Assembly: GCA_038064695.1 (NCBI GenBank)
Contig: JBBTSO010000001.1
Span: 85,932-149,931, forward strand
Direction: 5' to 3'
Origin: Patescibacteria group bacterium
Lineage (GTDB): Bacteria > Patescibacteriota > Minisyncoccia > Phycocordibacterales > Phycocordibacteraceae
Length of the DNA stretch: 64,000 nucleotides
Below the pieces are notes generated by a model. That model was not told where the DNA came from. It ran no database searches and saw only the letters and a list, made by a program, of their open reading frames with translations. Positions 970-51,453 of the stretch are shown here, piece by piece. A program made the position numbers and the translations under genes. Position 1 is the stretch's first letter. Every line of letters starts with the position of its first letter.

Positions 970-3364
970 AAAACAAAAGCCGATTTTGGTCTTGATTGAC
1001 TCCCACGCCATTATTCACCGTGCGTACCACGCGCTTCCTGAGTTGACTGACTCTAAAGGAAACCCTGCGGGTGCTTTGTATGGACTCGCCTCAATGTTGG
1101 TGAAGTTGATAAAAGAGCTCAAACCCGAACACATTGTGGCCGCGTATGACTTGGCAGGCCCCACGCACCGCCACGAAGTGTATGAAGACTACAAAGGCAC
1201 GCGTGCAAAAACAGACGACGCGCTCATTGCGCAGCTAGATCGTTCGCGTGATATTTTTGCCGCGTTCCACATTCCTATTTATGAAGCAAAAGGGTTTGAG
1301 GCAGACGACATTATTGGGACTCTCGCCACCACATTAAAAAAAGAATTTGACGTCGTTGTTGCTTCGGGCGATATGGACACGGTACAGTTGGTGGACGATG
1401 TAGGCGTGCGTGTCTTTACTCTTCGCAAAGGCCTTAACGACACCGTGATGTACGACGAGGCGGCGGTTATGGCGCGTTACGGGTTTGCGCCCGAGTTTAT
1501 TCCCGACTACAAAGGGTTTGCAGGCGATGCTTCCGACAACATCATCGGCATTTCTGGTATTGGCGAAAAAACGGCGACAAAACTCATTCAGGCGTACGGA
1601 AGTGTTGAGAATATTTACAAAGCGTTAGAAAAAAAACCGGAAGAATTTAAAGAAAAGACAGGGGTCACCGAGCGCGTTTTTAACTTGCTTCGCGACAACC
1701 AAGAAGAAGCTGAGTTTTCAAAAGTACTCGCCACTATACGCACCGATGCCCCCGTGGCGTTTGATGAAGAAGAAGCACACTGGCAAAAGAATTTTAGTAC
1801 TGACGCCGCAAAAAAACTTTTCACGGAACTTGGATTCAGGTCGTTGATCGCAAGAGTTGAGACTCTTGTGACAGGAAACAGTGATGAAGGGTCAGTAAAG
1901 AGTGAGAAAAAAGAACAGTTAGAAAAAACTGATGATTTGTCACCAATTCCTGTATACACCGCGGATTCCTTGCTTGCCAAGGAATCCGCGGTGATGCTCT
2001 GGCTTTTGCAGTCGGAAACCACAAACCCCTCTGTGGAAGATGTGCTCAACAACACGGACTCAAAAACATTAGAAGAAGCACACGAAAAACTGCTCCGTGA
2101 CCTCAAAAAAGAAAACCTTTTAGATATTTACGAGCGTATTGAAAAACCACTCGTTCGTGTGTTGGACGTAATGAACGCAAACGGTGTGTTAATTGACGCG
2201 CCGTATTTAAAAAATCTCTCCAAGGAGTACCACAAAGAGTTAGACGCGCTCGCAAAAGCGATTTTCAAAAAAGCAGGAAAAGAATTTAATATCAACTCAC
2301 CGAAACAGTTAGGCGAAGTGTTGTTCGTGCATATGGGTATCAAGCAGGCACGCGCGAAGAAAACCTCTACCGGCCAACTTTCTACCAAAGAGTCAGAACT
2401 TTTAAAACTTAAAGATGAAAACCCGATCATTGCTGACATTCTGGCGTACCGAGAACTCCAAAAACTACTTTCTACCTACATCGACGCTATTCCACCGCTT
2501 TTGGGCGAAGACGGTCGTTTGCATACCACCTTTATTCAAACAGGGGCGGCAACAGGCAGACTTGCCTCGCAAAACCCTGGGGTTCAGAATATCCCCGTCA
2601 AAACTGAGTTAGGGCGACGTATTCGTGGTGGGTTCGTTGCTCCAAAGGGCTCGGTGTTACTCGCGCTTGATTACTCGCAAATAGAGCTTCGCCTCGCCGC
2701 CATTCTTTCAGGGGACGAAAAGTTGAAACAGATTTTTATAAACGGGGAGGACGTACACACCGCCGTTGCCGCACGCGTGTTTGGCGTGGCGCCTGACGCA
2801 GTTGAGTATGAAATGAGACGCAGAGCAAAGGTCATTAACTTCGGCATTTTGTACGGTATGGGGGTGAATGCGCTTCGGGAACAGCTGGGAACGACCCGTG
2901 AGGACGCGCAGGCATTTCTTACGCGCTACTTTGAAACCTTTACGGAACTTGAGGCATACCTCACGAAAACAAAAGCAACCGCCACACGCCTCGGGTATAC
3001 CACCACCCTCTTCGGGCGAAAACGATTTTTCCCCGGACTCAAATCAAAACTCCCGTTCGTGCGCGCCTCATCCGAACGTATGGCGATTAACGCGCCCATG
3101 CAGGGGAGTCAGGCAGATATGATCAAACTCGCAATGGTTAATATCCAGGAGCGTATAGAAAAAGATTTTGCCGATACGGTGAAAATGGTACTTCAAATTC
3201 ACGACGAATTGATATTTGAAGTGAAAGACGACGCACTTTCTGTATTCACCCCCATCGCGCGGCATTTGATGGAGTCGGTACTGTCTAAAGAAGACGCGCA
3301 GGGCGTGCCCATTATTGTTTCAAGCGAAGCCGGTCCTTCGTGGGGGGAAATGAAGAGTATATAG
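962..3364 (+). CDS. polA: DNA polymerase I: 5'-3' exonuclease plus polymerase domains, 3'-5' exonuclease domain reduced
   Basis: Family A polymerase motifs DYSQIELR, RRRAKVINFGILYGM and QIHDELIFE. N-terminal FEN-like domain present. Start taken at ATG 962 (MPKKQKP) rather than 938, which overlaps tsaE. Confidence 0.93.
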   Translation: MPKKQKPILVLIDSHAIIHRAYHALPELTDSKGNPAGALYGLASMLVKLIKELKPEHIVAAYDLAGPTHRHEVYEDYKGTRAKTDDALIAQLDRSRDIFAAFHIPIYEAKGFEADDIIGTLATTLKKEFDVVVASGDMDTVQLVDDVGVRVFTLRKGLNDTVMYDEAAVMARYGFAPEFIPDYKGFAGDASDNIIGISGIGEKTATKLIQAYGSVENIYKALEKKPEEFKEKTGVTERVFNLLRDNQEEAEFSKVLATIRTDAPVAFDEEEAHWQKNFSTDAAKKLFTELGFRSLIARVETLVTGNSDEGSVKSEKKEQLEKTDDLSPIPVYTADSLLAKESAVMLWLLQSETTNPSVEDVLNNTDSKTLEEAHEKLLRDLKKENLLDIYERIEKPLVRVLDVMNANGVLIDAPYLKNLSKEYHKELDALAKAIFKKAGKEFNINSPKQLGEVLFVHMGIKQARAKKTSTGQLSTKESELLKLKDENPIIADILAYRELQKLLSTYIDAIPPLLGEDGRLHTTFIQTGAATGRLASQNPGVQNIPVKTELGRRIRGGFVAPKGSVLLALDYSQIELRLAAILSGDEKLKQIFINGEDVHTAVAARVFGVAPDAVEYEMRRRAKVINFGILYGMGVNALREQLGTTREDAQAFLTRYFETFTELEAYLTKTKATATRLGYTTTLFGRKRFFPGLKSKLPFVRASSERMAINAPMQGSQADMIKLAMVNIQERIEKDFADTVKMVLQIHDELIFEVKDDALSVFTPIARHLMESVLSKEDAQGVPIIVSSEAGPSWGEMKSI

Positions 3365-3390
3365 TATTTTGTATAGAGTATTTAGTATGG
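3363..3390. repeat. heptad-periodic ATACTNN array (inverted copy) abutting the start codon of the IVS-family gene
   Basis: Reverse complement reads atactaa-atactct-atacaaa-atactat. It pairs with the direct copy at 3761-3790. Confidence 0.6.
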
Positions 3391-3755
3391 GAATCAAACA
3401 TTTCTCAGAACTCGATGCTTGGAAGAAAGGGCACACGCTCGTTCTTCTTGTCTACGAATATACAAAAAATTTTCCTGATGATGAGCGGTTCGGTCTAGTT
3501 AATCAAATGCGCAGAGCTGCCGTATCAATTACCTCAAATATTGCCGAAGGCTTTGGAAGAACAACCATCAACGATAAAGTACATTTCTATACCATGGCAA
3601 AGACGTCGCTTTCAGAGATTGAAAACCAAATGCTAATAGCCAAAGACCTTGACTACGTGGCCACAAATATCTATGAGCAATTTAAAACTCTGGTCGATGA
3701 AGAACATCGCCTCCTGGGGGGTCTAATGAAATCGGCACGTTCAAAAACGCACTAA
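3387..3755 (+). CDS. four-helix-bundle protein of the 23S rRNA intervening-sequence family
   Basis: About 120 aa helical protein (GIKHFSELDAWKKGH...MRRAAVSITSNIAEGFGR) typical of the TIGR02436-like family. ATG at 3387 preferred over TTG at 3369. Confidence 0.7.
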   Translation: MGIKHFSELDAWKKGHTLVLLVYEYTKNFPDDERFGLVNQMRRAAVSITSNIAEGFGRTTINDKVHFYTMAKTSLSEIENQMLIAKDLDYVATNIYEQFKTLVDEEHRLLGGLMKSARSKTH

Positions 3756-3760
3756 TGCTC

Positions 3761-3790
3761 GATACTAAATACTGAATACTCTATACTGTG
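3761..3790. repeat. heptad-periodic ATACTNN array (direct copy) upstream of the holA-like start
   Basis: gatactaaatactgaatactctatactgtg gives four 7-bp repeats of ATACTNN and is the inverted partner of 3363-3390. Confidence 0.6.
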
Positions 3791-3793
3791 TGT

Positions 3794-4480
3794 ATGCTCC
3801 ACTTGCTTATTGGTGTTGATGTCGTGGCGGCAAAAGCCGAGGCGCGCAAGCGCGCCAAGGGGGAAGTGGTCGTATTTGGCGAAGGCGCGCAGTCATTCGA
3901 CACGGCGCTTTCATACCTTGGTTCACAAGGACTTTTTGCGCCAAAAATTTCACTCCTATTTGACCGCGCGCTTGAATCTGCTGAAGGAAAAGCACTATTT
4001 GAAGAACACGCAGAAACACTCCATTCGCATGATACGGATGTATTTGTGATTGAAACGTCACTGAACGCGGAAGTAAAAAAACTTTTTCCTAAAGGTGTTG
4101 AGGTAACAGACTTTGGGAAAAAAGAAGCGGAGGAAAAGCCGATGCCGTTTACGCTCACTGATTTATTTATGGCAGGCGACCGAAAAGGTGCGTGGATTGA
4201 ATACCAAAAACTTCTGGGGCAGGGACTTTCAGCAGAGGAAATTCACGGAACGCTTTCGTGGGCAGTGCGCAGTGCGCTTTTGTCAGCAAAAACAAAAAGC
4301 GCGGACGAGGCAGGGTTAAAACCATTCGTGTACACAAAATCAAAACGTTTCGCGGAAAAGCTCGGCGTCAATGTCGTTGAAAACCTTTCACGAAAGCTTG
4401 TCCACATTTACCACCGTGCCCGTGCGGGCCAGGGAGATATGACGCTCGGAATTGAGAAATTGATTCTGGAAAAAAGTTAA
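3794..4480 (+). CDS. holA: DNA polymerase III delta subunit-like protein (short)
   Basis: N-terminal LLIGVD resembles the delta-subunit start. Helical C-terminal region (LSWAVRSALL, LVHIYHRARAG). Located next to polA. Confidence 0.5.
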   Translation: MLHLLIGVDVVAAKAEARKRAKGEVVVFGEGAQSFDTALSYLGSQGLFAPKISLLFDRALESAEGKALFEEHAETLHSHDTDVFVIETSLNAEVKKLFPKGVEVTDFGKKEAEEKPMPFTLTDLFMAGDRKGAWIEYQKLLGQGLSAEEIHGTLSWAVRSALLSAKTKSADEAGLKPFVYTKSKRFAEKLGVNVVENLSRKLVHIYHRARAGQGDMTLGIEKLILEKS

Positions 4481-4839: not shown

Positions 4840-4985
4840 ATAAAAAGTATAACAAAAATAGGAAACGTCTCATAACGCTCCGACCCGGACTTTGTCGTCA
4901 CGAATAATTACTCGTCAGCCCTCGTAATTTTCGCGACCCCGGCTCACGGTCTCGTCTGCTGACTCGACATCGTTCCGCCTCGGAC

Positions 4986-5016
4986 AAAATCATAAAACCT
5001 GCCGCAGGGCAGGTGT
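4986..5016 (-). terminator. intrinsic terminator downstream of tRNA-Lys
   Basis: In the minus sense the sequence reads cctgcc-ctgc-ggcagg followed by ttttatgatttt. Confidence 0.55.
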
Positions 5017-5028
5017 TTATGTATTTTG

Positions 5029-5101
5029 TCCGCCCGCTTGGGATCGAACCAAGGACCTTCTCCTTAAAAGGGAGCTGCTCTACCGGCTGAGCTACGGGCG
5101 G
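5029..5101 (-). tRNA. tRNA-Lys (anticodon TTT)
   Basis: Manual fold of the reverse complement: acceptor CCGCCCG/CGGGCGG, D arm GCTCAGCCGGTAGAGC, anticodon loop CTTTTAA, T arm CTTGGTTCGATCCCAAG. CCA is not encoded. Confidence 0.85.
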
Positions 5102-5139
5102 AAGTTGCTCACGAAAATGATGCGGAGCATCGGTTTTGT

Positions 5140-5262
5140 GAGAGAAAGAAAAAGGATGTTTATATACTTTTTCTTGAACAAACAAAACCGTTCGGGAGTA
5201 AATTTTGTTAGAACGCCCCGCCCGTATGAACCGGCTCTGCAAGCCGACGTCATACGGGCGGA
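5140..5262 (-). promoter_or_regulatory. conserved tRNA upstream module (hairpin plus promoter-like segment), copy 1
   Basis: Shares an ordered run of blocks with 17690-17830: ccgcccgtatga...tcatacgggcgg hairpin, ttttgt.agaacgc, acaaaa, tttat.ta. It lies about 40-160 bp upstream of the tRNA-Lys 5' end. Confidence 0.45.
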
Positions 5263-6223: not shown

Positions 6224-6257
6224 CAGTATAGAGTATTGAGTATAAAGTATACAGTAT
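6224..6257. repeat. heptad-periodic ATACTNN array filling the 37-bp divergent spacer between DoxX and trmH
   Basis: Reverse complement reads atactgt-atacttt-atactca-atactct-atactg. Both flanking genes start within 8 bp of the array. Confidence 0.6.
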
Positions 6258-6735
6258 GGCTCAAAATATATTTCTCATCATTCACAACGTGCGGAGTGCT
6301 CACAATGTGGGTTCCTTGTTCCGCACCGCTGACGGCATGGGGGTATCAAAAATACTTTTGACAGGCTACACCGGTGCGCCCGTCGATCGTTTTAATAGAA
6401 AAGATTTAAAAATTGCGAAAGTTTCGCTTGGCGCGGAGGATGTGGTGCCGTGGGAAAAGAAAGATATTTTTGAATTGATTTATGATTTACGAAGTAAGGG
6501 TGTAGAGGTTGTGGCACTTGAACAAAGTGCACAGTCTATCTCGCTTGATTCTTTTGTCCCAAAAGGGCCGGTTGCGCTTATTGTGGGGAACGAGATAGAG
6601 GGAGTTACTGAAGATGTGCTGGCTCTTTGCGACGCTGTGATTGAAATCCCCATGAAGGGGGGAAAGGAGTCGCTCAACGTCTCAAACGCTGGCGCTATTG
6701 CGCTCTATCAGTTGTCACAAAAATTGGAATTCTAA
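6256..6735 (+). CDS. SpoU/TrmH family RNA 2'-O-methyltransferase
   Basis: C-terminal SPOUT motif IEIPMKGGKESLNVSNAGAIALYQL. Confidence 0.8.
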   Translation: MAQNIFLIIHNVRSAHNVGSLFRTADGMGVSKILLTGYTGAPVDRFNRKDLKIAKVSLGAEDVVPWEKKDIFELIYDLRSKGVEVVALEQSAQSISLDSFVPKGPVALIVGNEIEGVTEDVLALCDAVIEIPMKGGKESLNVSNAGAIALYQLSQKLEF

Positions 6736-10977: not shown

Positions 10978-11049
10978 AAAGACAGTATAGAGCACTCCGC
11001 ACTCATCATTCAGTGCCAGTGCGGTTCAAACAAAAATGCTGATTTCCTT

Positions 11050-11077
11050 GATACTTTATACTGAATACCGTATACTG
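11050..11077. repeat. heptad-periodic ATACTNN array upstream of rpsT
   Basis: gatactttatactgaataccgtatactg matches 3761-3790 at 22 of 26 positions. It ends 10 bp before the rpsT ATG. Confidence 0.6.
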
Positions 11078-11086
11078 CTTTTCTAT

Positions 11087-11353
11087 ATGGCAATTACTAA
11101 AAGCGCAAAAAAGGCTATTCGCTCTCAAGAGCGAAAGCGTGTATTTAACGTCCGCACCAAACGCGCACTTTCAAGCACCGTAAAGGCGACCTCAGCGGCT
11201 CTCGGGAAAGATCGAAAAGAGCAAAATGAAGTCTTAAAAGCCGCCTACAAGGCAATTGATAAAGCAGCAAAACGCGGCGTCATAAAGAAAAATACCGCAG
11301 CGCGTAAAAAGTCCCGCCTCGCACAACGCCTCAAGAAATCATCCGCAAAATAA
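11087..11353 (+). CDS. rpsT: 30S ribosomal protein S20
   Basis: MAITKSAKKAIRSQERKRVFNVRTKRA is typical bS20. Start set to ATG 11087. Confidence 0.85.
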   Translation: MAITKSAKKAIRSQERKRVFNVRTKRALSSTVKATSAALGKDRKEQNEVLKAAYKAIDKAAKRGVIKKNTAARKKSRLAQRLKKSSAK

Positions 11354-11381
11354 AAAACCGCCCTCAGGGGCGGTTTTTGTT

Positions 11382-11831
11382 TTATGCGTGTGAGAGTTTT
11401 CTCCCTCCCAGCATTTTTTTTACTATAGGAACGCCAAATTTAAATCCTACCCCCGCTAGCGCTGTTGCTACTCCCGCCGCCAAAATTGTTTGAGGCATGT
11501 TTGATTTCTGCTTCATAGGAACATACTCGCCCTCCGCGTCGCGTACGTATCCCTGCGCGCGTGCCCACTCGTCATTTTTCATTTGTCCTTCTTCAATATA
11601 ACTTTGGTATTGTCGATTGCCTGCGAGGTCAGTTTTATACCCGAGCTCATCAGTAAAAGGGGAGCGAGTAGGTTTTGCTGCTGGATCAGCATCGCCACTT
11701 TCAAGGTCTATTCCAAGCACTTCACGCACCTCTTCTAAGTTTGAATAAATCGCTACGATTGCTGCTACTGCCGCAACAAGCATTCCACCCATTAAAATAA
11801 AGTTAGGTCGTTCTTTTTTTGTTTCTGCCAT
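11382..11831 (-). CDS. hypothetical membrane protein
   Basis: Two predicted TM helices. No recognised domain. Confidence 0.35.
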   Translation of the reverse strand: MAETKKERPNFILMGGMLVAAVAAIVAIYSNLEEVREVLGIDLESGDADPAAKPTRSPFTDELGYKTDLAGNRQYQSYIEEGQMKNDEWARAQGYVRDAEGEYVPMKQKSNMPQTILAAGVATALAGVGFKFGVPIVKKMLGGRKLSHA

Positions 11832-11915
11832 AAAAGTAAATTTAAACGCGCCAATAAAAGCGCTATTTGAGCATTATATACTTAAATTCTTATTTTGTCA
11901 AATATTCTGTAAGAC

Positions 11916-12958: not shown

Positions 12959-14254
12959 ATGAAGATTGCTCACATTCACGCGCGCGAAGTTTTTGATTCG
13001 CGAGGCACACCCACTTTAGAGGCAGAAGTAACCACTGAACACGACATAGTGGGGCGCGCCATAGTTCCTTCAGGTGCTTCAACAGGTACCCATGAAGCTC
13101 ATGAGCTCCGAGATAATGATGAAAAACGCTTTGGGGGAAAGGGAGTATTGAAAGCGGTTAGGCACGTGAACGAAGACATCGCGCGAACGCTCATCGGGAT
13201 GCCCATAGATGCGCAGGAAACCATTGACGAGGCACTGATTACGCTTGACGGGACTCCGAATAAAAAACGCCTCGGGGCGAACGCGCTTCTCGGGGTGTCG
13301 CTTGCGACCGCTCACGCCGCAGCGAAAGAAAAAAACATTCCTCTCTATGAGTACGCGAGTCTTCTTTCAGAAGAAAAACGCGAGCCGGTGTTGCCGCTTC
13401 CGCTCATCAATATTTTAAATGGGGGCGCGCATACGCTCTGGGAATCTACCGACATTCAAGAGTTTATGATTGCTCCCGTGGGAGCTGACTCGTTTTCGCA
13501 CGCGCTTCAGATGAGCGCGGAAATTTTTCACGCGCTCAAAGGCGTCTTGAAAGAAGCGGGATACGGGACGGGAGTGGGGGACGAGGGAGGGTTTGCGCCT
13601 GCGCTTAAAGACGGTAACGAAGAAGCGTTTGCACGAATTGCCGAAGCGGTCGGGAATGCAGGGTACGTGTTGGGAAGCGACGTGGTGTTTGCGCTTGATA
13701 GTGCCGCTTCAGAATTTCATCGTGGAGAATCGTACGCGCTTCCGCTTGCGGGCAGAACTCTCACGAGCGATGAGATGATTTCGTGGTATCGCTCACTTTC
13801 AAAAAAATTCCCCATTGCTTCTCTTGAAGATGGGCTTGCAGAAGGTGATTGGGATGGGTGGAGACTCCTTACTCGTGAACTAGGGGACACGATGCAACTT
13901 GTAGGAGATGATCTTTTGGTTACCAACACCACGTTTTTAAATCGGGCAATAGAGGAAAAGGCAGGGAACGCTATTTTAATAAAGGTGAACCAAATAGGAA
14001 CACTCACTGAAACTATTCGTGCCGTTGATAGTGCGCACCGCGCAGGGTGGCGCACCGTTATGTCGCATCGTTCAGGAGAAACAGAGGACACTACCATCGC
14101 ACACCTTGCGGTAGGGTTGGGGTGCGGGCAGATAAAAACAGGGTCGCTCAGTCGTTCTGACCGTGTCGCGAAATACAACGAACTGCTTCGTATTGAAGAA
14201 CGTTTAGGAGACCGCGCAGTATTTGCGGGAAATGTTTTTCTTACTAATAACTAA
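12959..14254 (+). CDS. eno: enolase
   Basis: [38 protein letters not shown] and [10 protein letters not shown]. Start at ATG 12959. Confidence 0.95.
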
Positions 14255-14280
14255 CCACTAGCCACTAAACACTAATTTCT

Positions 14281-17590: not shown

Positions 17591-17662
17591 GTGCTCTCGG
17601 TAGGAATCGAACCTACATTGCAAGCTCCGCAAGCTTGCGTCCTATCCATTGAACGACGAGAG
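17591..17662 (-). tRNA. tRNA-Arg (anticodon GCG by manual fold)
   Basis: Reverse complement gives acceptor GCTCTCG/CGAGAGC, anticodon stem CAAGC/GCTTG with loop TTGCGGA, and T arm GTAGGTTCGATTCCTAC. Confidence 0.7.
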
Positions 17663-17689
17663 CATAGTTGCTTACGGGAAGCGCGTAGC

Positions 17690-20878: not shown

Positions 20879-20967
20879 TGGCGGAGGCGGTGAGATTCGA
20901 ACTCACGGTACCGTAAAGGTACGGCGCATTTCAAGTGCGCTGGAATAAACCACTATCCGACGCCTCC
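20879..20967 (-). tRNA. tRNA-Ser (anticodon TGA), CCA encoded
   Basis: Reverse complement gives acceptor GGAGGCG/CGCCTCC, anticodon stem GCGCA/TGCGC with loop CTTGAAA, a long variable arm, T arm GAGTTCGAATCTC and a 3' GCCA. Confidence 0.85.
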
Positions 20968-27867: not shown

Positions 27868-27940
27868 GGCCCCGTAGTTTAATGGATAAAACAGGAGACT
27901 TCTAAGCTCTTGATCCAGGTTCGATTCCTGGAGGGGCCAC
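27868..27940 (+). tRNA. tRNA-Arg (anticodon TCT)
   Basis: Acceptor GGCCCCG, D arm GTTTAATGGATAAAAC, anticodon loop CTTCTAA and T arm CCAGGTTCGATTCCTGG. One mismatch at 31-39 and one at 7-66. Confidence 0.8.
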
Positions 27941-28826: not shown

Positions 28827-29062
28827 AATTCTTTATTTTGTGGTCACCCGGCGCTGAGAGACTTGGTCAAGCGCTCGTTCGGCGTATAAAACAATGAGCC
28901 GAACATTCTTTATGTGGTCACTCGTCACTAAGTATTTTTCTTCCTGTTGTCGAAAAATACTAAGTGCGTTCGACCCCGCCTCGCGGTCGCGTGCTTCACG
29001 CGACATCACTCCGGCCCCCACAAAGCAAAAAACCGGTACGCAGGTACCGATTTTTGTCTTTG

Positions 29063-29135
29063 TGGGCGCTGAGGGACTTGAACCCCCGACCTTCTCAGTG
29101 TAAATGAGTTGCTCTACCAACTGAGCTAAGCGCCC
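29063..29135 (-). tRNA. tRNA-Val (anticodon TAC)
   Basis: Reverse complement gives GGGCGCT acceptor, GCTCAGTTGGTAGAGC D arm, anticodon loop TTTACAC and T arm GGGGGTTCAAGTCCCTC. Confidence 0.85.
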
Positions 29136-31122: not shown

Positions 31123-31206
31123 GCGCAGGTGGCGAAATTGGTAGACGCACTACCTTGAGGTGGTAGCTCCCGCAAGGGAATGGAGGTTCAAATCCTCTCC
31201 TGCGCA
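31123..31206 (+). tRNA. tRNA-Leu (anticodon GAG)
   Basis: Acceptor GCGCAGG, anticodon stem CTACC/GGTAG with loop TTGAGGT, a long variable arm and T arm GGAGGTTCAAATCCTCT. Confidence 0.85.
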
Positions 31207-31371: not shown

Positions 31372-31444
31372 GGTGGCTATGGTGTAACGGTTAACACTGG
31401 AGCTTGTGGAGCTCTCGATCAGGGTTCGATTCCCTGTAGCCACC
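31372..31444 (+). tRNA. tRNA-His (anticodon GTG) with genomically encoded G-1
   Basis: GGTGGCTA...TAGCCACC gives an 8-bp acceptor including G-1. Anticodon loop TTGTGGA, T arm CAGGGTTCGATTCCCTG. Confidence 0.85.
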
Positions 31445-39116: not shown

Positions 39117-39233
39117 GGAAGACAGTGTACAGCGGATAGTGTTCAGTGGATAGTTGAAAACAAAAAACTAGATATTTGTGGAGAGCCATACGTCGCTTGA
39201 CATTTCTTTTTTACCATAGTATAAAGGATTTCT

Positions 39234-47942: not shown

Positions 47943-48026
47943 TAATAGGAAACAGTAATGAGTGAAGAGTAATCAGCGGTGAGTAATGAGAGATAGAAAT
48001 GAGTATCGTATAATGCAAAGATATGG

Positions 48027-50003: not shown

Positions 50004-50046
50004 GTCATACGAAGTATGACCAGTAAACAGGAATCAGTAATGAGTT

Positions 50047-51453
50047 ATGAGTGAAAACCAAGAAAACGTAATGGAAAAAATTGTGTCGCTCGCCAAAAGG
50101 CGCGGGTTTATTTTTCAAGGTTCTGAAATTTATGGGGGGCTTGCGGGCGTGTATGATTTTGGCCCGAACGGAGTGGAACTTTTAAGTAACATCAAACAGT
50201 CGTGGTGGAAAGCGAATGTGTACGATAAAGAAAACTATTTTGGTATTGATTCTGGAATGTTCAAACATCCCAAAACGTGGGAGGCGTCTGGCCACACGAG
50301 CGGGTTTTCAGACCCACTTGCGGAGTGTAAAAACTGCAACACGCGCATTCGTGTTGATAAAGAGCTCGCCGCGCTTGGTGTAGAGGCGGATGAAAAAATG
50401 TCTGAGAGCGAGCTCAACGAGTTGTTTGACGCGCATCGGGAGAAAATAAAATGCCCTACCTGTGGTAAAAAAGATTTTTCAAAAGTCCGCGCGTTTAACT
50501 TGTTGGTGAAATCAAATCTCGGCGACTTCACTTCCGAAGGTACCGACCCGGTGTACCTGCCGGGCGAGGCGTGCCAGGGAATCTACCTCAACTTTAAAAA
50601 TATTGTGGACAGCATGCACCCGAAAATTCCTTTCGGCGTTGCGCAAATCGGTAAGGCATTTCGAAATGAAATCAGTCCTCGTAACTTTCTTTTTCGTACA
50701 CGCGAGTTGGAACAGGCGGACACGCAGTACTTTGTAAAACCAAACGAAAACAAAGATGCGTACGAAAAAATAAAACAAGAACGCTGGCAGTGGTATCTAA
50801 GTTTGGGCATTGAAGAAAACAAACTGCGTTGGAAACAACATGAAAACCTTGTCTTCTACGCGAAAGACGCGTGGGACATTGAGTACGAATTTCCGGGAGG
50901 GTTTGATGAAGTGGAAGGTATCCACGACCGCACTGACTACGACTTAACCCAGCATATGAAGTTCTCTGGAGTTGACCTACGCTACACCGACCCGGAAACC
51001 GGCGAGAAGTACATTCCGTGGATTCTTGAAACTTCTATGGGTGTGGGGCGCGTATTCCTTGCGGTGCTTGCAAACGCGTACCGCGAAGATGAACTCGGAG
51101 GGGAGAAGCGCGTGTACTTAAAACTTCCTCCGCACCTGGCGCCCGTAAAAGCGTGCGTGTCGCCACTCCTTAAAAACAAACCAGAGTTGGTTGAAAAAGC
51201 GCGGGAAGTCTATGCAACACTCAAAAAAGAGGTTCCACAAATCGTGTGGGACGACAACGGCAATATTGGTAAACGCTACCGCCGTCAAGACGAAATTGGT
51301 ACGCCGTTCTGCATCACCGTTGATTTTGACACCTTGGGCGAACACGCGGAACTAAAAGACACCGTAACGCTGCGCCACCGTGATACTGGAGAACAGGAGC
51401 GTTTGAGTATTGAAGATGTCGTTAAAAAAGTAAAACAGAAAATTACTTTGTAA
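50047..51453 (+). CDS. glyQS: glycyl-tRNA synthetase (alpha2 dimeric type)
   Basis: RRGFIFQGSEIYGGLAGVYDFGPNG, class II motifs, a zinc-ribbon insert and a C-terminal anticodon-binding domain. Confidence 0.85.
   Translation: MSENQENVMEKIVSLAKRRGFIFQGSEIYGGLAGVYDFGPNGVELLSNIKQSWWKANVYDKENYFGIDSGMFKHPKTWEASGHTSGFSDPLAECKNCNTRIRVDKELAALGVEADEKMSESELNELFDAHREKIKCPTCGKKDFSKVRAFNLLVKSNLGDFTSEGTDPVYLPGEACQGIYLNFKNIVDSMHPKIPFGVAQIGKAFRNEISPRNFLFRTRELEQADTQYFVKPNENKDAYEKIKQERWQWYLSLGIEENKLRWKQHENLVFYAKDAWDIEYEFPGGFDEVEGIHDRTDYDLTQHMKFSGVDLRYTDPETGEKYIPWILETSMGVGRVFLAVLANAYREDELGGEKRVYLKLPPHLAPVKACVSPLLKNKPELVEKAREVYATLKKEVPQIVWDDNGNIGKRYRRQDEIGTPFCITVDFDTLGEHAELKDTVTLRHRDTGEQERLSIEDVVKKVKQKITL

Follow-up and report, generated by a model that had tools for sequence, protein, structure and literature searches.

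Tandem arrays of 7-nt units (heptads) were analysed in a 64,000-nt stretch of DNA, the window, from a Patescibacteria group bacterium (GenBank assembly GCA_038064695.1, contig JBBTSO010000001.1, positions 85,932–149,931). Several described systems resemble these arrays. The S23p-bearing intervening sequences (IVSs) of rRNA, reported from Leptospira, Coxiella, Brucella, and Xanthomonas (PMC4990558), are composed of an open reading frame (ORF) for a four-helix bundle within inverted, stem-forming flanks. In Coxiella, 3–4 GACAGAT heptamers are located directly upstream of the S23p ORF (PMC4990558), and in Azospirillum the arms themselves are heptads (CAGAGGA/TCCGTCC). An S23p cassette of the window shared this architecture, whereas it was located between polA and holA and not in helix 25 or 45 of the 23S rRNA, and its arms also gave a stop codon and a putative promoter to the neighbouring genes.

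The TAACTGA repeats of marine Beggiatoaceae, cyanobacteria, and Bacteroidetes (MacGregor 2015, PMC4679880) are intergenic sets in which a 7-nt unit with an ACT core is repeated 2–6 times, located a few nucleotides from start codons where ribosome-binding sites are rare. Their patchy phylogenetic distribution suggests horizontal spread, and no mechanism of transfer was found in that study. S23p/IVS proteins are absent from its text, and its supplement has no S23/IVS entries. The window arrays differed from them in a unit with two free positions (ATACTNN), which mimics a −10 box in a lineage of leaderless mRNAs. The cyanobacterial STRR repeats and the GGGAATC and GGGGA(C/T)T repeats of Xanthomonas and Nostoc (Mrazek 2007 as cited; PMC4692102) have a period of 7, are intergenic, mostly contain about four units, and often form inverted pairs, with lengths that differ between relatives. 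The GGGAATC-type repeats are, unlike the window arrays, G-rich, discussed as G-quadruplexes, and closer to upstream stop codons, and their link to S23p had not been noted.

REP/BIME elements with their RAYT proteins (REPIN-RAYT) also consist of a small gene within inverted copies of a dispersed intergenic repeat of patchy presence. S23p, in contrast, forms a four-helix bundle and lacks an HUH/Y1 transposase domain, and no NCBIfam transposase family matched the S23p protein of the window. Its repeats are tandem heptads and not single palindromes, and the mobility of its cassette is deduced only from indels and swaps. In Haemophilus hmw1A, perfect 7-bp tandem repeats separate the promoter from the start codon, vary between isolates, and cause phase variation (PMC8262952). 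The window units, in contrast, were imperfect, and a second assembly of this population (L201) was identical to the window except for one mismatch in 3892 nt, with equal array copy number. A phase-variable contingency locus was rejected on the imperfect units, with variable NN positions, and on the lack of copy-number polymorphism between the assemblies.

The arrays of the window were best explained, with a probability of about 55%, as mobile, S23p-linked heptanucleotide repeat elements of the IVS type, the gene-proximal unit of which took over the role of a −10 box. On the best reading of the sequences, the arrays carry a promoter, while their repetition would stem from the repeat element and would have no basis in promoter function.

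The S23p cassette and its heptad arms

Within the window, four arrays with ATACTNN units and four with related cores were found, and AGT/ACT was the core common to all eight. The arrays and the S23p gene were as follows.

3356–3391, AGTAT on the + strand: five heptads (AGTATAT, AGTATTT, TGTATAG, AGTATTT, AGTATGG), left arm of the S23p cassette
3387–3755, + strand: S23p ('23S rRNA IVS protein') gene, 122 aa, four-helix-bundle family (TIGR02436, PDB 2GSC, PF05635/PF22296)
3758–3790, ATACT on the + strand: four to five units (GATACTA, AATACTG, AATACTC, TATACTG), right arm of the S23p cassette
6224–6258, AGTAT on the + strand: solo array of five units (AGTATAG, AGTATTG, AGTATAA, AGTATAC, AGTATGG), filling the 37-nt divergent DoxX/SpoU spacer
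11050–11077, ATACT on the + strand: solo array of four units (GATACTT, TATACTG, AATACCG, TATACTG) upstream of rpsT
14242–14276: array of CACTAAN (TACTAAT, AACTAAC, CACTAGC, CACTAAA, CACTAAT) between a 458-aa gene, the stop codon of which lies inside the array, and gpmA
39121–39155: array of CAGTGNN with period 7/14 (GACAGTG, TACAGCG, GATAGTG, TTCAGTG, GATAGTT) beside the dcd-like start
47954–47990: array of GAGTAAT/GAGTGAA units with period 7/14, located 3' of the stop codon of a 206-aa gene and ~150 nt before the next start
50021–50055: array of CAGTAAT (CAGTAAA, CAGGAAT, CAGTAAT, GAGTTAT, GAGTGAA), overlapping the glyQS ATG (50047)

A three-unit ATACTNN pattern with at most two mismatches had 12 matches in the window, whereas dinucleotide shuffles predicted 0.07. 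Together with its harmonic 14, lag 7 was the outstanding autocorrelation lag of the 64 kb (at least 15 of 21 positions matched in 68 windows, and in none after dinucleotide shuffling), and Tandem Repeats Finder gave period 7 at three of the four ATACTNN/AGTATNN sites (3356–3388, 3762–3788, and 6225–6257). The four arrays of this type that an initial annotation had placed at 3363, 3761, 6224, and 11050 were present far above chance, with boundaries re-set to those listed. Its arrays with other cores before gpmA, the dcd-like gene, a surface-protein gene, and glyQS were also confirmed. Rfam at gathering thresholds matched only tRNAs in the window, with no match at the arrays and no rRNA. With at least two direct copies of a 7-nt unit in intergenic spacers, the arrays are heptanucleotide tandem repeats and belong to the long-known, unexplained class of STRR, GGGAATC, and TAACTGA repeats.

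The S23p protein matched TIGR02436 (E=4.7e-32, 110 bits, cutoff 24) and PDB 2GSC (XCC0516, an entry with five chains; E=6.5e-21), and PF05635/PF22296 were assigned to the gene in the database gene table. The unit of the right arm was the reverse complement of that of the left arm, and the minimum-free-energy fold of 3340–3810 paired both arrays. The arm duplex had an energy of −35.8 kcal/mol, compared with −14.8 kcal/mol for shuffled arms. The arrays at 3356–3391 and 3758–3790 are the mutually complementary arms of a 438-bp S23p cassette. The cassette contained the S23p-family ORF and the inverted flanks of an IVS, able to form a long enclosing stem, but it was not located in a helix of 23S or 16S rRNA. 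In RNA, the arms would fold into a ~35-bp stem around the ORF, as in the rRNA IVSs excised by RNase III. RNase III has been reported as retained in the candidate phyla radiation (CPR; PMC12641178). Candidate readers of the periodicity would be the S23p pentamer, RNase III on paired arms, or a replication or repair process.

By its polA and SpoU homologues, the window belongs to Patescibacteria, with names of the Kaiserbacteria/Paceibacteria type, and a contig identical to it is from Hainich groundwater. None of the loci L001–L200 was closely related to the window, and its relatives were found through their polA and SpoU proteins. In the closest one (L202), with polA at 93% amino-acid and 82% nucleotide identity, polA was followed after 4 nt by holA, without the cassette. 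The homology broke at window position 3355 and resumed at 3809, and the 438 nt (3356–3793) of the window stood for 16 nt (GCGATACAATAATTTT) containing TACAAT-N6-ATG, where N6 denotes a spacer of 6 nt. At the same junction, L204 contained TATACT-N7-ATG, and L208 and L209 contained an ORF-less array ending in TATACT-N6-ATG. The insertion in the window is seamless. The left arm, which contains the S23p ATG (3387), gives the polA stop codon (TAG, 3362–3364), and the right arm gives the putative holA −10 box. The cassette was neighboured by polA, holA, a nucleoside deoxyribosyltransferase gene, and tdk.

Two other locus pairs also differed at the module. The flanks of L123 and L152 were 94–100% identical, whereas their array-S23p-array segments were only 68% identical and had different units, with the divergence bounded by the outer array edges. 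In L146 and L155, the flanks were 83–84% and the cassette 91% identical. Since the module shows indels and swaps (L202, L123/L152, and L146/L155), it appears to evolve independently of its flanks and to behave as a mobile or replaceable unit.

L202 also contained, within its polA coding sequence, a heptad array (AACTGAT, AACTCAT, CACTCAT, TACTCAT; 1403–1446) that apparently falls in the linker joining the exonuclease and polymerase domains; the equivalent site of the window polA was not flagged. At 4114–4944 of L202, ~570 nt downstream of holA, a 276-aa gene had a faint LAGLIDADG_3 match. The window has other genes there, and this is a further indel between the two genomes.

Heptad arrays and S23p genes across phyla

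A metagenome scan with a three-sequence S23p alignment yielded 80 independent S23p loci, which were searched for a lag-7 array within 150 bp of the gene, with 140-nt windows as background. An array was present upstream in 58 of 80 loci (72%) and downstream in 53 of 79 (67%), compared with 89 of 2077 background windows (4.3%), an enrichment of ~17-fold. Other lags occurred at 0–3% of the flanks, except lag 8 (9–12%) and the harmonic lag 14 (~50%). The mean arm duplex of 77 loci was −34.3 kcal/mol, compared with −20 kcal/mol in controls (p=1.3e-11). On the S23p coding strand, upstream arrays had AGT in 25 cases and ACT in 2, and downstream arrays had ACT in 15 and AGT in 3. The median array length was 5.7 units upstream and 4.9 units downstream.

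In at least eight phyla, complementary heptad arrays enclosed S23p genes, and the units included GGGAGTA, AGCGTAT, GGTGACA, CAGAGGA, and GGGAATC, which are unlike a −10 box. A 23S rRNA gene, recognised by the Rfam LSU model with 2549 bits, contained the Azospirillum S23p gene, and by this position its element is a canonical 23S rRNA IVS with heptad arms. Four exact ATACTNN units were found at more than 120 loci of reference genomes, from Patescibacteria, Bacteroidota, Chloroflexota, Ignavibacteria, Atribacterota, cyanobacteria, and others. All seven S23p-like ORFs in these loci were bracketed by heptad arrays, with a unit that differed by locus.

On annotated plasmids of cultured strains, S23p homologues were nearly all from cyanobacteria, mostly Nostocales, the classic taxa of STRR repeats. 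Arrays of 7 or 8 nt flanked seven of the eight plasmid genes examined, among them the Azospirillum gene, with arms of GGGAGTA/CCCTACT in Nostoc and GGTGACA/CTGTCAC in Anabaena sp. 90. Period-8 arrays flanked S23p in Picosynechococcus (L215; AGGAGATA/ATCTCCTN) and Gemmatirosa (L217; CTCCTGCC). In the five plasmid loci L212–L216 (Nostoc edaphicum, Calothrix, Pseudanabaena, Picosynechococcus, and Anabaena sp. 90), S23p was located inside tight operons, between nrdB and nrdA, between cas6 and cas4 of type I-D CRISPR (twice), between cmr2 and cmr3 of type III-B, and between an HlyD-like gene and its ABC transporter.

The link is also contained, without remark, in published data sets of Coxiella and Xanthomonas. 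For Coxiella it consists in the heptamers upstream of S23p. The supplement of PMC4692102 places GGGAATC repeat #15 of Xanthomonas campestris across the start codon of XCC0516, which is the S23p protein of PDB 2GSC. No paper on an S23p-heptamer link was found in the literature searched, beyond the mention of the Coxiella heptamers, and the physical coupling of the heptanucleotide repeat class to S23p/IVS-protein genes appears new. It physically ties together three puzzles that have been separate for decades, namely the excess of 7-nt tandem repeats in many bacterial genomes, the role of the very common S23p 'IVS proteins', and the origin of rRNA intervening sequences. Complementary arrays enclose S23p, gains, losses, and swaps affect the module without its flanks, and nearby solo arrays share its unit.

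Neutral 7-bp replication slippage, along the polymerase-footprint idea of Mrazek, would make the arrays by-products tolerated only in spacers, with the S23p link due to shared tolerance or to a need for a long inverted repeat. Heptanucleotide simple repeats are over-represented in many bacteria, and the arrays come and go between close relatives, both of which speak for slippage. Alone, it leaves unexplained, however, the arm complementarity kept across different units, the fixed polarity relative to S23p, the narrow length distribution of 4–6 units, the enrichment at S23p genes, and the imperfection of units in which the core is conserved but the NN positions vary. We consider it the least probable of the explanations weighed here.

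Avd, a homologue of S23p, binds nucleic acid and reverse transcriptase in diversity-generating retroelements. Assignment of the window gene to such a retroelement was rejected; the Avd model gave 33 bits against a cutoff of 80, and no reverse transcriptase was adjacent. The behaviour of the homologue is nevertheless consistent with arrays being RNA or DNA binding sites of pentameric S23p, with about one heptad per subunit and 4–6 units per array, by which S23p would regulate itself and a regulon preceded by arrays, or would propagate arrays as RAYT does REP. The tight coupling of genes and arrays, the median array lengths, the strand polarity, the unit shared by solo arrays and cassettes, and the five chains of 2GSC, described as a homopentameric toroid (PMC4990558), agree with this. 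The family, however, has no known catalytic or nucleic-acid-binding motif, and some arrays contain up to 22 units. Furthermore, units vary widely, even within one contig and within the window, and sequence-specific recognition would therefore need rapid co-evolution or a recognition of shape or period only. Such binding is unlikely as the explanation of the arrays.

A broader proposal would unite S23p proteins and heptanucleotide, sometimes octanucleotide, arrays in one widespread mobile repeat system, comparable to REP/RAYT and not recognised before. Binding, maintenance, or spread of the arrays would be due to the S23p pentamer, the cassette would insert in rRNA helices (as IVSs) and in operon spacers, and solo arrays would be its ORF-less progeny. 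This proposal is tentative, and we hold it to be possible but rather doubtful. If true, one S23p-array system would explain the heptanucleotide excess in bacteria (STRR, GGGAATC, and TAACTGA) and its patchy, horizontal-looking distribution, and its arrays would have been co-opted as promoters in leaderless lineages.

In the explanation preferred here, the six other arrays of the window (6224–6258, 11050–11077, and the four with related AGT/ACT cores) would be ORF-less copies of the cassette repeat family, which arose or expanded in minimal spacers by 7-bp slippage or spread from the cassette. Solo arrays were within one mismatch of the cassette unit of their own contig in 34% of cases, compared with 6% for the cassettes of other loci (p=3e-10). 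In relatives without S23p in the sampled stretch, arrays were rare; L203 had none in 22 kb and L211 none in 16 kb. The idea that every array adjoins an S23p gene was rejected. S23p was adjacent to only 4 of the ~130 ATACTNN arrays of the reference-genome loci, and most such arrays are therefore solo. In Saccharibacteria and Patescibacteria (L002, 4700–4788; L039, 4228–4329 and 4771–4869), an AGTAT-type array was directly followed by an ATACT-type array with no ORF between them; these back-to-back arrays resemble 'empty' hairpins, like IVS elements without an ORF.

Probable leaderless promoters and the gene-proximal units

In Actinobacteria and Deinococcus, leaderless mRNAs are made from a −10 box of the form TANNNT, with 6 nt between its end and the start codon. 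The window had 80 genes that were not preceded by an array; TANNNT ended exactly 6 nt before the start in 13 of them, compared with ~1.6 at other offsets, and TATANT did so in 6, compared with ~0.1. Over the window and three relatives, this spacing applied to ~20% of start codons. The ORF calls used here were our own and crude, and the spacing result was repeated with independent database gene calls in three relatives, where TANNNT was found at 6 nt in 13 of 65 genes and at 7 nt, the second most frequent offset, in 7. The logo of 26 aligned sites of the clade was tG-n-TAtaaT, with T at −15 and G at −14, and no −35 signal was present in them. Shine-Dalgarno (SD) motifs were almost absent from the window genes, and spacers were tiny. 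Since the peak at N6 and the tGnTAtaaT logo without a −35 box are the known signature of leaderless transcription, it is well founded, on these statistics, that many mRNAs of the lineage are leaderless and start from a −35-less extended −10 box ending 6 nt before the ATG. The initial annotation, which had concluded from the proximity of arrays to ATGs that the transcripts are leaderless, was supported in this respect.

The lineage is like Actinobacteria and Deinococcus in the TANNNT peak at 6 nt, the lack of SD motifs, the TGn extension, and the lack of a −35 box, and it differs in that the signature is known in this Paceibacteria-like Patescibacterium from sequence statistics alone. No report of a leaderless −10 signature for the Paceibacteria-like group was found in the literature searched. 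Such a clean signature aids the annotation of start codons and operons in uncultured genomes of the group. The −10-like boxes of the arrays, and one ordinary leaderless promoter for comparison, were as follows.

3374–3379, + strand: TAGAGT, a weaker −10-like hexamer, 7 nt before the S23p ATG (3387)
3782–3787, + strand: TATACT, then 6 nt (GTGTGT), then the ATG of the holA-like gene at 3794; follows the N6 rule
6225–6230, − strand: TATACT, then 6 nt (GAACAT), then the ATG of the DoxX-like gene (6218–6216); follows the N6 rule
6243–6248, + strand: TAAAGT, −10-like, 7 nt before the SpoU/TrmH ATG (6256)
10984–10989, − strand: solitary TATACT, N6, and the in-frame ATG (10977–10975) of a RuvA-like gene; the ordinary leaderless promoter
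11071–11076, + strand: TATACT, 10 nt before the rpsT ATG (11087)
within 39121–39155, − strand: TACACT, 7 nt before the dcd-like ATG

A TANNNT box was positioned as in a leaderless promoter at 6 nt for DoxX and holA and at 7 nt for SpoU, S23p, and dcd, and that of rpsT was at 10 nt. A distance of 6–13 bp between array and ATG, as given initially, needed small corrections, as TATACT ended 6 nt (DoxX, holA) or 10 nt (rpsT) before the ATG and arrays in the AGTAT orientation ran into it (S23p, SpoU/TrmH). The array spacers would act as promoters because the lineage makes leaderless mRNAs from a −10 box 6 nt before the ATG, and the gene-nearest unit would replace the ancestral box because ATACT looks like a −10, fully for DoxX and holA (TATACT-N6-ATG) and more weakly, at N7 or N10, for SpoU, S23p, dcd, and rpsT. 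Most likely, the proximal unit serves as the −10 box in a leaderless, ultra-compact genome. Outside arrays, a start codon followed TATACT at N6 in 4 of 22 cases, against a background of 5%. The hexamer alone is a weak predictor because this enrichment is only modest.

The DoxX/SpoU spacer was compared with that of six relatives (SpoU 65–82% identical), which was 17–18 nt long, had no array, and had the form ...GCATTATAC... A single shared box gave TATAAT-N6-ATG toward DoxX and CATTAT-N6-ATG toward SpoU. Because the six relatives share this short spacer with one common −10 box, the 37-nt spacer of five heptads in the window is a derived, enlarged form of a bidirectional leaderless promoter. The spacer of L210 contained a 97-nt hairpin built of heptads, and this locus also had an array between convergent genes.

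The initial annotation regarded the arrays as tandem −10 boxes. As a selected device, such boxes would offer several registers to RNA polymerase or a phased factor, and their repetition would tune the expression of leaderless genes. TATACT matches the −10 box of the lineage, terminal units are located at N6 or N7, and the arrays stand in place of the single boxes of relatives. In addition, a sigma-70 scan gave TTGATA-17-TATACT and TCGATA-17-TATACT within two arrays, the former at the rpsT array. The first array unit as a −35 box was nevertheless judged coincidental, because no −35 signal emerged from the alignment of 26 leaderless promoters of the clade. The promoters of the lineage have no −35 box and prefer TGn, which the arrays lack; upstream units would give leaders of 7, 14, or 21 nt without a ribosome-binding site; and the same 7-bp architecture with units unlike a −10 box flanks S23p genes in many phyla. 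Of that claim, the location of the arrays and the part on the proximal unit, which gives TATACT-N6-ATG in two arrays, were supported, whereas the periodicity as a promoter device, and hence its supposed cause, was not.

The placement of arrays elsewhere also bears on this point. In one locus set, 19% of arrays and 18% of spacers were between convergent genes, in the other 26% and 10%, and arrays were thus not depleted there. In these loci, they were under-represented in divergent spacers, and in co-directional spacers the median distance was 25–34 nt to the upstream stop and 61–102 nt to the next start. The published Xanthomonas repeats are located 28 nt from the upstream stop and 160 nt from the next start (PMC4692102). 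By their placement, arrays are not promoters in general. We regard tandem −10 boxes under selection as quite unlikely, more so than S23p binding sites.

The arrays may instead act in RNA, as SD-independent sites for translation initiation or for regulators upstream of starts, as proposed for the TAACTGA repeats of Beggiatoaceae, of which 169 sets lie mostly a few nucleotides from start codons with few ribosome-binding sites (MacGregor 2015, PMC4679880). The window arrays abut the ATG where SD motifs are almost absent, and the co-directional ones (gpmA, glyQS, and holA) would be transcribed in polycistronic RNA. Under a leaderless architecture, however, most of an array would lie upstream of the transcript, and the array at 6224 would provide no 5' untranslated region to both genes unless transcription starts in a neighbouring gene. 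The location of arrays elsewhere nearer to stop codons also disagrees with a role at starts. A role in RNA is improbable.

Several observations weigh against the preferred explanation by repeat elements with a co-opted −10 box. Only two of the eight arrays (DoxX and holA) had the canonical TATACT-N6-ATG, and the gpmA and glyQS arrays had no TANNNT or −10-like box at 6–7 nt before the ATG, which also counts against tandem −10 boxes. The TGn extension was found in none of the window arrays, which had CTC or CCG at those positions. Approximately 25–30% of S23p genes had no detectable arrays, and on a plasmid of Pseudanabaena galeata (L214, 1370–1990) the arrays around S23p, AAAAGCT x15 upstream and AAAAGCC x10 downstream, were direct and not inverted. 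The origin of solo arrays from the cassette family would rest on shared unit sequence. The array at 6224 could equally stem from slippage of an ancestral ATTATAC box, without a link to S23p.

Genomic surroundings

The loci of two relatives (L203 and L204, 1–2300) began at dnaA-dnaN, and the polA/SpoU/rpsT neighbourhood of the window is therefore probably within ~10–20 kb of the replication origin in this lineage. A perfect TTGACA-17-TATAAT promoter (11873–11901, − strand) was located ~41 nt upstream of a 149-aa gene (11382–11831); it is a leadered promoter with a −35 box, in a genome otherwise dominated by −35-less leaderless promoters. Between this gene and the convergent rpsT, a perfect 11-bp GC-rich hairpin with T-runs on both strands (11353–11378) looks like a bidirectional intrinsic terminator, which would mean that the genome uses conventional terminators alongside heptad arrays.

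Seven tRNA genes were found by Rfam in the window.

5029–5101: tRNA gene
17592–17663: tRNA gene
20882–20967: tRNA gene
27868–27939: tRNA gene
29063–29135: tRNA gene
31123–31206: tRNA gene
31373–31444: tRNA gene

Some of the crude ORF calls, such as 4898–5242 and 28833–29120, overlapped these genes and for that reason are probably not genes.

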